The notes beneath the pieces are model-generated. The model was not told the DNA's origin. It did not search any database and saw only the letters and a program-made list of their open reading frames with translations. Positions 54,179 to 63,933 of a stretch of 64,000 nt of DNA are shown in pieces (the stretch's first letter is position 1; the number at the start of each line of letters is the position of its first letter). Made by a program: the position numbers and the translations under genes. The DNA is from Escherichia phage AnnaHegner_Bas87, in sequence record PQ850594.1; one strand, given 5' to 3'.

Positions 54179-54467
54179 CCTCTGTTTCCTCATTCTGGCG
54201 TTTAATTTCTTCAGTGAGTTGCTTGTTGAGATCTTGAATACGTTTAATCTCCCAACCCAAAGAAGCCAAACGATCATTACGTGCTTCAATTTGCTCCTGC
54301 ATCTTGAGCAGTTTGGAACGAACATCAGCATTAAAGACTTCCTCTTGCTCAAGAAGGAACTCATAACGACGCTTCCAGCTTGCTGACTTATTACTTAACG
54401 CAATAAATCCTAGAACAGAAATCGTTACGGTGAGTACGAGAAGGAATCTATAAACCTCTAAAGTCAT
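54162..54467 (-). CDS. membrane-anchored coiled-coil protein
   Basis: N-terminal TM (FLLVLTVTISVLGFIAL) then heptad-rich Glu/Lys/Leu/Gln segment. Confidence 0.45.
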   Translation of the reverse strand: MTLEVYRFLLVLTVTISVLGFIALSNKSASWKRRYEFLLEQEEVFNADVRSKLLKMQEQIEARNDRLASLGWEIKRIQDLNKQLTEEIKRQNEETEDALKG

Positions 54468-54668
54468 ATCTTTATCCTCTTAAAGTAAGATATTATAAGA
54501 AATGTTATTTAGAATTTATTATTTCTAAACTTAATTTCTATCAATAATTTTCAGAGGTCTATATACAGTCATTACCTCTGGTCCCAAATCACTTCCACTT
54601 TTTGCAGAGAAAATCATAAGTGTGTGATTTATAAGGAAATTTAGTTTGTCAATCTTGGCACCTATGAA

Positions 54669-59438: not shown

Positions 59439-59765
59439 TTACGGATTGGTGCAAGTGCCGTTACCGGATGATATTTCGTTCATCGACTCATCGAACAACG
59501 TCATTCTAGACCGCATCATGTGATCTATAGTGATTTGCTTTCCGGTAATTTCGTTAACAAGCATCGCATACTTGCCATCAACGACACGATGATCATAGTC
59601 ATTCAGGTCAATCAATACTACCTTGCTAGACTTCTTGCCAGTGTCGTAGTTTTCCATAAGATAGGTGCATTGCAGACCATCTAAACTGGCCTCGTTGAAT
59701 ACGGCAGCATGTGACACGGAAGAAACGGCGAACAAGGCAGCAAATACAGCAAATTTAATTTTCAT
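59439..59765 (-). CDS. small secreted periplasmic protein
   Basis: start moved to internal Met: MKIKFAVFAALFAVSSVSHA signal peptide. Confidence 0.45.
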   Translation of the reverse strand: MKIKFAVFAALFAVSSVSHAAVFNEASLDGLQCTYLMENYDTGKKSSKVVLIDLNDYDHRVVDGKYAMLVNEITGKQITIDHMMRSRMTLFDESMNEISSGNGTCTNP

Positions 59766-59857
59766 GATCCAACCCTTAAGCGGAACGTGCAACAAAGAAA
59801 AACAAGTCATAGATAAATGCTATGATACAGAGAACTAACAGACAATGCAAAAAATAC

Positions 59858-60396: not shown

Positions 60397-61238
60397 TTAG
60401 CAAAGTTAATAAAGGTTGTATAAACTGCTACACCGTCATTGTAAGCAGTGGTAGCGAGTACAGTTTCACTCACATCACCATAACTAACGAGATTAGTTAC
60501 AAACTGTAATTTCTCTTTCTCAACCTTCTGGTAAAGAGAATACGTCACCATATCACGATCACTATCAGCACGTTTCAATTTAATAACTGATTGAATGCCT
60601 GATTTCTCGTCCAACGGGGTAAGAGTGACACGAACATCTTTTACGGTTACAGAGTTAAAATGCACCTTCCAGAATGAATCATTACCATCACTGCCAACGT
60701 CACGGCAGACCATATCAGGAGCATTCTTAAACGTGCTAACAAAGGATTGCAGACCAGTAGAAAGAGAGTCTTTTGCCTGAACATTGGTAGCGATAGCACT
60801 AACACCGATAGCTGCAACCAGTGCATAAGAAGCCAGATTAACAGACTTCATAATCTTATTTGCAATAGAAGGCTTGCTATCTTTCTTCTTGTTCTGAATA
60901 GCTTCAACCATAGCAGACAAGCGGGCTAATACTGCGTTAACATCGCGGCAAGATTCAGGCCAATCCTTTTGAGTCCAACTATCTAAATTAGCCTGAATGT
61001 AACAGTTGATAGCATCTTGCATATCGGTAAAACCATTCTCTTTCATCGACTCTTTATCTTCACACTGTAAGGCGTTCGCGGTGGAATCAATGATAAGGCA
61101 AGCCAGAATGACAGAGTTTTTGAAGCTGGTACGAGCTTGCTGATTATCCATCCATTGAGAAGGCACACCAACGGAAAGACCTAACGAAGAAAGTACATCA
61201 TTTGCTTGATTCAAGTATTTAATTGCTAACTTTGACAT
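60378..61238 (-). CDS. membrane protein with central signal-anchor-like helix
   Basis: 286 aa; central MKSVNLASYALVAAIGVSAIATNVQA segment between two soluble domains. Confidence 0.4.
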   Translation of the reverse strand: MSKLAIKYLNQANDVLSSLGLSVGVPSQWMDNQQARTSFKNSVILACLIIDSTANALQCEDKESMKENGFTDMQDAINCYIQANLDSWTQKDWPESCRDVNAVLARLSAMVEAIQNKKKDSKPSIANKIMKSVNLASYALVAAIGVSAIATNVQAKDSLSTGLQSFVSTFKNAPDMVCRDVGSDGNDSFWKVHFNSVTVKDVRVTLTPLDEKSGIQSVIKLKRADSDRDMVTYSLYQKVEKEKLQFVTNLVSYGDVSETVLATTAYNDGVAVYTTFINFANCEAIQ

Positions 61239-61283
61239 TTCATTAATCCTTTCGGTTGATGTGAACTACAAACTACGATTGCA

Positions 61284-61311
61284 ACTATATATTAAAGGAA
61301 AAACCTGTCAA
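61284..61311 (-). promoter_or_regulatory. sigma-70-like promoter (TTGACA-16 bp-TATAGT), leftward, within 85 bp element copy B
   Basis: about 45 nt upstream of the 61238 start. Confidence 0.45.
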
Positions 61312-61424
61312 CTACTTATTTTCAAACTATTTCATAACTCACTGAATATAAAAGGAATTTAATTTACTAAACTTTCTTGTTCAGAGGAATGACTAACTAA
61401 AAGAATGTTACTTTATAACACTTA

Positions 61425-61975
61425 TAGAACGGGTAGCAGACCAACGGGATAGATAGATGGGTAAGACGTGCCGCATAGGTTAGCCAATGGGTAAGAAGCC
61501 TAACGAGGAAGGGGAAACGGGTGGGATATAATGTAAGTTAGTTACAGGTAACAGGTCAGACCATGCGGTAATAAATTACCAGTCAAAAATCTACTCATCA
61601 AAAGAAAAAAGAAACGCTGAAAAAGAAAAGAATAAAAGAAAGAATAAAAATAATAACTAAAGTAAACAACTACCAGTCTAAACATACATACATCAATAAT
61701 CCACTCATGAATAATCACATAAGTTATTACATTCAAACTATGGGGGATGGTCATCAATGGTATAGTTGCATAGTGTTACTAGTAGTTATCATAGGTTATC
61801 ATTAGCCTGATCATAGTCACTATTATAGCCCCTTAACAGAGGCTAGCCTTTCATCCTTCCTTAACATGAGTAAGAGAAATACGGGTAGGAAATCACTGGT
61901 TAGATATACATGGGTAAATAATGCATGTGTAATATCAATGGGTAGGGTATTTATGGGTAGGGATACCACTGGTAG
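61425..61975. repeat. iteron-like array 1 of (A/C)(T/C)GGGTA-type motifs
   Basis: at least 8 dispersed copies (e.g. GATGGGTAAG, AATGGGTAAG, CATGGGTAAA, AATGGGTAGGG, TATGGGTAGGG) in ORF-free DNA, separated by a purine-rich A tract. Confidence 0.6.
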
Positions 61976-62184
61976 CAGGTAGGCTAGGGCTTAGAGCTTA
62001 AAGGCTGATTGATTTCCTAAAGGCAATTGCATTGGTAATAACCCTTTTTTAAATGAGGACTCCCCCTTTTTAGGAAACGCGCTCGGAGAGGCTAGGTCCA
62101 TCCGGTCAAATTGAAATTTTAAACTCTTATATATAACTATATGCCCCAACGTTAGTTGTGGATTTAAGAATAAGGAACTATTTT

Positions 62185-62349
62185 ATGTGGAATATTAAGT
62201 TACTAATTAAGCAATTCAAATGTCAACACGAATACTACCCGATACGAATATCGAGAGGTGATGAACGGTTACACGCTTATTACAAGAGTACTTGGAGATG
62301 CGCAGACTGTGGTAAGGTTAGGAATAGTAAATGGGTGGATAGGCCTTAA
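62185..62349 (+). CDS. small zinc-ribbon protein, HEW/CxxC-family-like
   Basis: start moved to ATG 62185 with AAGGAA RBS (track start is GTG 62158); FKCQHEY...WRCADCGK. Confidence 0.4.
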   Translation: MWNIKLLIKQFKCQHEYYPIRISRGDERLHAYYKSTWRCADCGKVRNSKWVDRP

Positions 62350-62460
62350 TGGGTATGCCTTAATGTGGGGTAGCCTTTATGGAGTCCCTTTACTTCAGCG
62401 TACATGGGTTAGTACATGGGTGGGCCTTTAGATGAGTACGCCTTTATGGGTTGATCACTC
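62325..62460. repeat. iteron-like array 2 of ATGGGT(A/G/T) motifs
   Basis: 6 further copies, the first inside the 3' end of ORF 62185-62349. Confidence 0.55.
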
Positions 62461-62484
62461 TCTTATATCAGAGGAGATATAAAA

Positions 62485-62751
62485 ATGATTCTAGACTTTT
62501 TATCAGAGTTGATTCCTTACTTCCGCACTGAAAAATGTGCATTTAAAGTTGAAGAAGTTGGGGACACTGAAGTAATAACTTGTTTGGGTAGATTAGTAGA
62601 CCTAGACGATGATGAAGATTTTGATGTTACAATAGACCTGAGTTCATTGGGCTGGTTGTACATGAGATTTTGCATAACCTACAAACCTGAGACTTATAAA
62701 GACTATCGTTATAGTGATAACACTGACACTGAAGGAGAGAATGATGAATAA
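62485..62751 (+). CDS. small acidic protein
   Basis: GGAG RBS; Asp/Glu-rich, acidic C-terminus. Confidence 0.4.
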   Translation: MILDFLSELIPYFRTEKCAFKVEEVGDTEVITCLGRLVDLDDDEDFDVTIDLSSLGWLYMRFCITYKPETYKDYRYSDNTDTEGENDE

Positions 62752-63397
62752 TATGACAGGAACTAATACACTGAATGCAATCTATGAGAACATGGGATGT
62801 AAAGGCGAGGTTGTTTATAATGGTGGTCTCCGTCCTTTATCAGAGGACACTTTCTATCTGAATCGTGTTCATGAAACTACTGGAGGTAAATCCCGAGTTG
62901 AGATGGTAAAACAACTGGCTCATGGTTCTGTGTATGGTTATGCTCCTTCAACCCGTGAATTATGGGAAGGTTTGATTTCTCATACAGAAGCTAAGGATGT
63001 GAAAGATTATTTCACTGTAGCGAAAGAGGTTAAACGTAAACTTCCTTCCAGTTTAGAAGTTGTTCCGTATGTATCCGACAAACATGCACACCTACCGGAC
63101 TATGCCCGTGAGATGATTGAGATGATAGAAGAGGCTGAGTATGAAGCTCTGAATAACTATCTCAACTCGAAAGATCAATGGTCACGTAATGTAGTAATTG
63201 ATGAAGAAGGTAATGAAGTTGTAACGTGGGTGCATGTTAGTGAACAAGCTCTGGACCCCGAGCTTGAAGAATACAAAAAATTTTTGGCGTCCTCTTCTTT
63301 TGATGTAGAGAATGACAAATCTGTTCCAGTTAGCTGGGAAGGTGAAACTGTAGCTCTCCAGACTTTGTTCAACCTACACGTAGGTGATGTAGACTAA
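62744..63397 (+). CDS. hypothetical protein
   Basis: start moved to ATG with AAGGAG RBS at 6 nt spacing; overlaps upstream stop. Confidence 0.4.
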   Translation: MNNMTGTNTLNAIYENMGCKGEVVYNGGLRPLSEDTFYLNRVHETTGGKSRVEMVKQLAHGSVYGYAPSTRELWEGLISHTEAKDVKDYFTVAKEVKRKLPSSLEVVPYVSDKHAHLPDYAREMIEMIEEAEYEALNNYLNSKDQWSRNVVIDEEGNEVVTWVHVSEQALDPELEEYKKFLASSSFDVENDKSVPVSWEGETVALQTLFNLHVGDVD

Positions 63398-63462: not shown

Positions 63463-63933
63463 ATGTTTGGAGAAAAAGGAGAACTCACGCCTGCACAGGT
63501 AGCTGAGATTACAGGAAGACTGCCCGGAGTAACGGAAGAACTTGAATCCAAGGGCATGGAACCAAGCACAGGGAAGTTCACTAAAGGTAATAAATTTGGA
63601 CGTCCCAAAGGTAGTAGAGGTAAATTGACACAGCTCATGCTCGATCGTGTTGCTGCTAGTCATCTGTCTCCCGATGAAGTGTTGATTCAGATTTATGAAG
63701 ATCCAAGTATTCCACCCGATCTTAGATTCAAGGCTGCAAGTAAAGTCGCTGATCTGGTATATCCTAAGGCAGCTTCTGTTGAGGTTAAGATTGAGGAAGA
63801 GAATGTAATCAATGAAGAATCACTGAACGCACAGATTCGAGACTTCTTGACTGGTGCACTGAAAGTGGATGTGCTACCTCCAGAGGACTCTGAGGACGCT
63901 GAAAAGGAGGAGGAGGAAGCGGACGAGAGTTAA
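63463..63933 (+). CDS. putative DNA-binding protein, possible small terminase subunit
   Basis: GGAG RBS; basic KGNKFGRPKGSRGK patch and acidic C-terminal tail; position ahead of the missing packaging genes; weak. Confidence 0.3.
   Translation: MFGEKGELTPAQVAEITGRLPGVTEELESKGMEPSTGKFTKGNKFGRPKGSRGKLTQLMLDRVAASHLSPDEVLIQIYEDPSIPPDLRFKAASKVADLVYPKAASVEVKIEEENVINEESLNAQIRDFLTGALKVDVLPPEDSEDAEKEEEEADES

Follow-up and report, generated by a model that had tools for sequence, protein, structure and literature searches.

What is the function of the short, one-orientation repeats that cluster where the minus-strand and plus-strand gene blocks of Escherichia phage AnnaHegner_Bas87 meet? An initial annotation of a 64,000-nucleotide stretch of this phage's DNA (record PQ850594.1; this whole stretch is referred to here as the window, and all positions are numbered along it) described (A/C)(T/C)GGGT(A/G) heptamers on either side of a small zinc-ribbon gene and proposed that they mark a replication origin or a binding array for a phage regulator. 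Upon following up this proposal, we found that the region comprises the two genome ends, with a three-part layout of heptamers that is biased to one strand, conserved among related phages and fixed in position relative to the terminal repeat. We surmise that the repeats are most likely part of an end-cutting and packaging signal, i.e. protein sites that would position the cuts at the concatemer junction, an explanation which, built as it is on sequence and on analogy with other phages, we advance tentatively.

The heptamers form three clusters on one strand

The enrichment of the heptamers and their absolute strand bias are real and far above chance. The pattern A[C/T]GGGT occurs 13 times on the plus strand of 61400-62480 and not once on the minus strand of the same segment, vs. 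a mean of 0.89 and a maximum of 5 AYGGGT matches in 2000 dinucleotide-preserving shuffles of these 1081 bp; in the same shuffles, the strict pattern MYGGGTR averaged 0.76 matches and never exceeded 4, vs. 11 observed. Local base composition, set beforehand as the test of the initial annotation, does not account for either count. Over the whole 64-kb window the strict pattern has 43 matches on both strands, with 11 of the 43 lying in 61429-62422 and all of these on the plus strand, while ATGGGT by itself is found 10 times in 61240-62485 vs. 0.38 times expected from the remainder of the window. The number of copies depends on the pattern used (11 strict, 13 with the last base free and 16 with the near-copies ACGGGAT at 61445, ATGGGGG at 61741 and TGGGGTA at 62366), and the "at least 14 copies" reported initially is reached only when near-copies are counted. 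These copies fall into three clusters instead of the two described before:

61429-61523, plus strand: heptamer cluster 1, with ACGGGTA at 61429, ACGGGAT at 61445, ATGGGTA at 61457, ATGGGTA at 61487 and ACGGGTG at 61517; right-end unique DNA.
61881-61959, plus strand: heptamer cluster 2, with ACGGGTA at 61881 and ATGGGTA at 61910, 61938 and 61953; inside the terminal repeat.
62331-62452, plus strand: heptamer cluster 3, with ATGGGTG at 62331, ATGGGTA at 62349, TGGGGTA at 62366, ATGGGTT at 62404, ATGGGTG at 62416 and ATGGGTT at 62446; left-end unique DNA.

Successive copies in cluster 1 are spaced by 16, 12, 30 and 30 bp. Cluster 3 is situated between gene 1 (the zinc-ribbon gene) and gene 2, starting within the last codons of gene 1, and most of its copies are embedded in GCCTT(A/T)ATGGGT units.

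We rejected several other readings of the region. As for a structured RNA, a search of 61000-62800 against Rfam with E up to 1 gave no match, and the predicted RNA fold of cluster 3 was no more stable than that of shuffled sequences (z = +0.83). At 61940-61962 in the terminal repeat, GGGTAGGGTATTTATGGGTAGGG fits the canonical G-quadruplex pattern (loops of 2, 7 and 2), with one or two of its G runs lost in relatives. The open reading frames (ORFs) overlapping the array (61542-61757 on the minus strand, 61866-61982 and 62258-62431) are broken by indels in relatives.

The array spans the joined ends of the virion DNA

The window shares 90-96% identity with phiEco32-like podophages of E. coli (Gordonclarkvirinae), including MLP3, 101114BS3, Bas86, NC-B, SU7 and others, and, as judged by this homology, is a circularly permuted assembly of a genome of that kind. 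The genomes of phiEco32-like phages are linear with short direct terminal repeats, the 193-bp repeat of phiEco32 having been experimentally determined, and T7-like packaging from concatemers has been assumed for them (PMC4281155, PMC9965538); reads from SU10 point to blunt ends (PMC4281155). The final 50 bp of the repeat in phiEco32 correspond to 62044-62093 by alignment; NC-B carries an identical stretch of exactly 250 bp at either end, which starts with AGCCTTTC and ends with GAGAGGCT; and the records of close relatives begin or finish at the same borders (SU7 and HC-25922 start at 61845, UKE3 at 61846, and NC-B ends at 62093). Taken together, these data identify the terminal repeat, which is present only once in the window because the assembly is circularly permuted:

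61845-62093, plus strand: direct terminal repeat (DTR) of 249 bp, assigned by homology to the phiEco32 repeat and to the NC-B ends; single collapsed copy.

With the DTR in this position, cluster 1 belongs to the unique DNA of the right end (offsets of -415 to -327 from the repeat), cluster 2 is carried at both virion ends (+37 to +109, its copies being at repeat positions 37, 66, 94 and 109) and cluster 3 belongs to the unique DNA of the left end, beyond gene 1 (238-353 bp after the repeat). The divergent region between strand blocks, as it was first described, is by this alignment not ordinary intergenic DNA: here the right and left extremities of the virion DNA meet, and cluster 2 falls within the DTR. 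An inverted-repeat search revealed that the left border, AGGCT^AGCCT (the caret marks the border), is a 10-bp palindrome and that the right border, GAGAGGCT^AGGTCC, resembles it; both borders read (G/C)CT^AG(C/G)(C/T)C, give or take a base, in 16 phages. Close to the right border lies a further element:

62042-62072, plus strand: T-tract block, CCCTTTTTTA-N10-CCCCCTTTTTA, about 21 bp from the right border; best-conserved block of the DTR.

This block has been published for SU10 as CCCTTTTTTA-N10-CCCTTTTTTA (PMC4281155) and corresponds to the conserved region at about 130-170 of the repeat in a second description (PMC9965538). Compared with these descriptions of the Kuravirus group, we find the same repeat, the same borders and the same T-tract block, with a repeat length of 249-250 bp here vs. 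192-193 bp. The heptamer arrays are not mentioned in the repeat descriptions of these two papers (PMC4281155, PMC9965538), the primary phiEco32 papers being outside this basis.

Other repeat lengths have been annotated in the group. In PAS59 (OQ921332.1), the annotated repeat of 275 bp maps to about 61647-61912, off the borders of both phiEco32 and NC-B, and the published SU7 repeat of 53 bp conflicts with the 249-250 bp implied by phiEco32 and NC-B. From these alignments, the PAS59 and SU7 repeats are probably artefacts of end calling or assembly.

Spacing is held among related phages while the motif changes with lineage

Columns were counted in an alignment of eight close relatives, in which 27 of the 28 heptamer columns of the DTR are invariant vs. 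167 of the 221 remaining DTR columns. Across 16 related junctions, the core motif occurs 213 times on the plus strand vs. 7 times on the minus strand, and an equivalent of cluster 1 is found in all 16. Wherever both borders of a junction were correctly placed, repeat positions 37 and 66-67 hold the first two DTR copies. DTR length spans 192-280 bp across the junctions, with 249-250 bp in the present lineage vs. 192-193 bp in the phiEco32 type, and the 36-bp spacer from the left border to the first copy is largely different in sequence between the present phage and phiEco32. Spacing is thus constrained and spacer sequence free, which is a signature of protein-DNA architecture. As far as sequence comparison goes, the initial suggestion that the repeats are an array of binding sites is borne out by their one-strandedness, by their conservation in 16 related phages despite spacer drift and by their fixed positions. 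Whole repeat units have been gained or lost among relatives, as exemplified by one extra 31-bp unit in TH42 and by a variable number of units in cluster 3.

The heptamer itself varies with lineage. In the phiEco32 lineage, which is about 75% identical to the present phage in this region, the same three-cluster layout is found with ACGGGG(A) replacing ATGGGTA, and in most junctions of both lineages clusters 1 and 2 each begin with an ACGGGT(A/G) copy. In ECBP2, cluster 1 is of the ACGGGG type and the repeat of the ATGGGTA type, and Bas92 has ACGGGA, so that the recognisable core becomes A-Y-G-G-G-N. In GAP52 and Privateer (Grimontviridae), border-like landmarks are kept (a C/T tract and then GCT^AG in both, and AGCCTTT in GAP52) together with other repeats. 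AGCCTTT of GAP52 is followed by ATTGAGG at about +39, +69, +168 and +183, then by a border-like CCCCTTTT...CCAGCT^AGCCCT and by three further ATTGAGG copies, while Privateer has about eight copies of ACTATGGRA and then CCCCCTTTTACGAAAACGAGAGAGCGTGCT^AGAC. The lineage-specific motifs are therefore AYGGGK in the phiEco32 group, ATTGAGG in GAP52 and ACTATGGRA in Privateer; a different motif at the same place would be expected from a specific binder co-evolving with its sites.

Two minor observations pertain to these arrays. Downstream of the inferred border, GAP52 (about 2170-2270) and Privateer (about 2130-2220 and 2420-2465) carry about 3 copies of the 13-mer ATGAC(C/A)(T/C)(C/G)(C/G)CATC(A/T)A, the reverse complement of which holds ATGGGAG-like cores. 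Within cluster 3 of TH43 (about 1400-1480), phiEco32 (489-629) and Bas89 (about 1320-1390) there is a small acidic ORF (MTEDEYGSFSEEDYE...), absent in the window, which is flanked by GCCTT(A/T)A-type units; these units may mediate the gain and loss of this mini-gene.

A proposed role in end cutting and packaging

Recognizing that the region represents the virion ends and that cluster 2 lies in the DTR, the likeliest role of the repeats shifts to end generation and packaging. We favor this role because of the location of the array at the terminus, its fixed spacing from the left cut, its strand-specific conservation, the replacement of its motif in distant relatives and the parallel with T7, as well as the presence of a putative small terminase gene 1.4 kb away. 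From this arrangement we infer that a protein binds the heptamers, who that binder is, and that the complex serves end processing and packaging. More specifically, the one-orientation A[C/T]GGG[T/G] heptamers would be bound by a phage protein, with the small terminase or some other factor that binds the junction as the most plausible candidates. This protein would assemble on the concatemer junction; the resulting complex would position cuts at the two GCT^AG borders, and with these cuts the terminal repeat would be duplicated and the unit genome packaged. The repeats would then correspond in function to the CCTAAAG arrays that surround the T7 terminal repetition. The candidate reader is encoded near the left end:

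63463-63933, plus strand: putative small terminase of 156 aa, directly upstream of the large terminase gene, in synteny with PAS59 and phiEco32.

We name this product as a putative small terminase, and as a candidate for the protein that reads the repeats, from gene position and synteny. The YF01 paper labels the gene pair gp3-gp4 small and large terminase (PMC9965538). The 156-aa protein falls into PHROG 8771, a family of unknown function, and had no match in Pfam or PDB.

For comparison, we rebuilt the T7 concatemer junction from the T7 record and counted CCTAAAG-type heptamers, finding 17 on the plus strand and 1 on the minus strand, with a spacing of 13 or 26-29 bp; two of them precede the 160-bp repeat, three are inside it and about ten come after it, followed by the host-polymerase promoters A1-A3 pointing inward. 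These arrays were reportedly named SRL and SRR by Dunn and Studier in 1983, and we know of no established function for them. The present phage resembles T7 in having a short exact direct terminal repeat and one heptamer in a single orientation, with copies before, inside and after the repeat and spacings of roughly 13 and 26-30 bp; in addition, its right end is built like the left end of T7, with the repeat, the array and then a host-polymerase promoter pointing away from the end. In contrast to this shared layout, CCTAAAG and AYGGGK have no sequence similarity, indicating a resemblance of layout and not of descent. Furthermore, the left array of T7 abuts the repeat; in the present phage, gene 1 lies between the repeat and cluster 3, and an A-rich tract between cluster 1 and the repeat.

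A second comparison is with the R sites of lambda cosB and the pacL and pacR boxes of SPP1, which are small-terminase recognition arrays next to the cut site. As in these systems, several short sites of the same sequence lie within a few hundred bp of the cut and at a constrained distance from it (37 and 66-67 in junctions with both borders correctly placed), A/T tracts maybe bend the DNA, and terminase genes are near. Unlike the present phage, lambda and SPP1 make cohesive or headful ends and not duplicated short terminal repeats; the sequence and spacing of their sites are unrelated to those here, where binding is a proposal.

Several points weigh against a packaging role. Clusters 1 and 3 are far from the borders (320-415 bp and about 240 bp, respectively) for an element that recognizes a cut site. 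Within the DTR, conservation is highest not in the heptamers but in the T-tract pair close to the right border, which may be the real recognition site. No clean co-variation of motif variant with a reader protein is demonstrable, given that ECBP2 mixes variants and that lineages using ATGGGTA and lineages using ACGGGGA share about 92% identity in the putative small terminase. The terminal-repeat borders of the present phage, GAP52 and Privateer were placed by homology and not from their own reads, and the analogy with T7 transfers a layout, not a proven function.

The A tract and promoter-like elements

Between the right-end early genes and the DTR are additional elements that bear on how the region may function:

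61284-61311, minus strand: sigma-70 type early promoter, TTGACA-16-TATAGT, with 11 of 12 consensus matches; hexamers invariant in 8 relatives.
61527-61537, plus strand: candidate promoter TATAATGTAAG, a perfect -10 hexamer overlapping the AATGTA element of gp36 (phage-sigma) promoters.
61568-61682 (core about 61590-61660), plus strand: A-/purine-rich tract, bracketed by the direct repeats GTAATAAATTACCAGTCAAAA (61568-61588) and GTAAACAACTACCAGTCTAAA (61662-61682).

The early promoter serves the leftward early genes, lies inward of the right genome end by about 780 bp and is directed away from it. The candidate promoter TATAATGTAAG follows directly upon the last heptamer of cluster 1 and is aimed at the terminal repeat; it is conserved in the lineage of the window, appears as TATAATGTATG in ECBP2 and Bas89, and is absent in phiEco32. 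The gp36 promoter consensus with AATGTA was taken from published work (PMC12276001, PMC4281155).

The A tract, which the initial annotation had placed between its first cluster and the gene, actually lies between clusters 1 and 2 and does not adjoin the gene. It has the highest A and purine content per 100 bp in the 64 kb and, with a GC content of 22%, is the second most AT-rich spot. Within the tract, CTGAAAAAGAAA is found at 61617, and ACGCTGAAAAAGAAA (61603-61631) is conserved in all Gordonclarkvirinae lineages examined, with a duplication in Bas92; similar sequences are CACTGAAAAGAAAAAGAAAAAG in GAP52 and CACTGAAAGAAAAAGAAAG in Privateer. If transcribed, ACGCTGAAAAAGAAA would give an (A-R-N)n-like RNA that could be of interest. 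The 21-bp direct repeats at the flanks of the tract contain ACCAGTC(T)AAA; the phiEco32 lineage has another pair, CCACTTAA(A/T)TAAT, at both flank sites, the pair thus changing together between lineages.

In the Cronobacter phage GAP52, five perfect DnaA boxes (four TTATCCACA and one inverted) are present within about 190 bp (1124-1315 of the junction), in a 2.4-kb noncoding end region and upstream of the A tract and the ATTGAGG arrays. By sequence, they look like a host-DnaA-dependent origin in a lytic podophage.

Gene 1 and the flanking proteins

The zinc-ribbon gene is the first one encountered after the left terminal repeat:

62185-62349, plus strand: gene 1, encoding a 54-aa protein with CxH...CxxC.

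Its product belongs to PHROG 7696 (unknown function), with the Cys/His pattern kept in phiEco32 and ECBP2; no Pfam match was found, nor any solved relative in a sequence search of PDB. Among the eight flanking proteins scanned with Pfam and PHROGs, there was no Pfam match, the PHROGs matched were all families of unknown function, and no Rep or initiator family was seen.

Alternative explanations

The initial proposal of a replication origin, the strongest of the alternatives, now appears rather unlikely to us, albeit with several features in its favor. In such an origin, cluster 1 and maybe the other clusters would be iterons, with the A tract as the zone of unwinding or priming, perhaps activated by transcription from TATAATGTAAG as promoters activate T7 origins. 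The extreme composition of the A tract would fit this role, as would the ACGCTGAAAAAGAAA core kept in every lineage examined and its counterparts in GAP52 and Privateer, the promoter-like element directed into the A tract, and the five perfect DnaA boxes that GAP52 carries at its cluster 1 equivalent; moreover, short direct repeats next to an AT-rich tract are what the iteron-type origins lambda ori and P1 oriR display. Unlike those origins, however, the present region has no adjacent initiator gene (none Rep- or initiator-like among the eight flanking genes scanned) and no DnaA box within one mismatch of TTATCCACA in 61240-62500, its spacings are irregular (12-30 bp), and its repeats come in three blocks over 1 kb, with one block inside the terminal repeat. 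The heptamer also fills the DTR at a fixed distance from the cut and recurs at the left end, neither of which is required of an origin; the promoter-like element is absent in phiEco32; and the switch in GC skew coincides with the switch in gene orientation and is uninformative. An origin and a packaging signal do not exclude one another, and a combined origin-and-packaging region is possible.

We consider it improbable that the array is an operator for a transcription regulator, e.g. the 54-aa zinc-ribbon protein, that would act on early promoters at either genome end or on the rightward promoter-like element. In three lineages the last heptamer of cluster 1 does abut the TATAATGTA element, cluster 3 and the repeat array enclose gene 1 together with the DNA upstream of it, and the gene 1 product is a conserved Cys/His protein; nevertheless, only one of about 15 copies touches a promoter-like element, the strong early promoter at 61284-61311 is free of heptamers, searches of Pfam, PHROGs and PDB placed the gene 1 protein in no DNA-binding family, no result here connects that protein with the repeats, and neither the T7-like layout nor the constant positions of the copies with respect to the repeat border would be explained. 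More improbable yet is a role in DNA entry, whereby the right end (DTR and cluster 1) would enter first, before host RNA polymerase engages the inward early promoter, with the repeats binding a protein, either ejected or of the host, that would protect the entering end or hold it. Such a role would be in line with the mirrored layout of the T7 left end and with the presence, within about 500-800 bp of the end, of host-polymerase promoters directed away from it; on the other hand, the motif has the same orientation at both ends, copies are also found well inside the left end, and there is no candidate protein. As to a neutral by-product, i.e. short tandem-like units without a sequence-specific function that slippage during replication, or recombination, would have generated close to the ends, the varying number of units in TH42 and in cluster 3 is what one would predict, but the core persists between lineages that are about 75% identical overall and whose spacers differ, positions 37 and 66 do not vary, the strand bias is 213 to 7, and analogous arrays with other sequences exist in other families, rendering this the least probable of the explanations.

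Implications for short-terminal-repeat phages

One-orientation short repeats in and around a terminal repetition are of a kind known since the T7 sequence and are described here for the phiEco32 group. Little is understood, even in T7, of how short-terminal-repeat phages recognize the concatemer junction, make the two border cuts and restore the repeat. In T7, late transcription into the junction by the phage RNA polymerase helps processing (phiOR, polymerase pausing); phiEco32-like phages lack a phage RNA polymerase (PMC4281155), and with this absence in mind the SU10 authors stated that the mechanism in phiEco32-like phages is unknown (PMC4281155). One might speculate further that the arrays are a specificity code for junction recognition and repeat duplication in short-terminal-repeat phages without a T7-type RNA polymerase, forming with the A tract a combined origin-and-packaging module common to all prolate-headed (C3) podophages; three features would fit this generalization, which we regard as doubtful: an unvarying distance to the palindromic GCT^AG cut, a motif that differs by lineage, and the neighboring A tract with its deeply conserved CTGAAAAAGAAA. 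At a practical level, a conserved, position-fixed and lineage-variable array beside a palindromic cut provides concrete cis-elements to mutate as well as a route to the reader protein. In addition, many database records of this group are permuted or have doubtful repeat annotation, and AGCCTTTC at the start and GGCT^AG at the end of the repeat can serve as landmarks for setting the true ends.

Minor features of the early-gene block

The 123-aa ORF at 59439-59810 on the minus strand matches PHROG 13168 'terminase' and is annotated as terminase in several records. This label is probably wrong, in view of a signal-peptide-like N-terminus (MKIKFAVFAALFAVSSVSHA) and a position among early genes. 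The lowest-GC 100 bp of the window (18-20%) is also found in the early-gene block, at 54441-54550, and may match the SU10 spacer with three early promoters.

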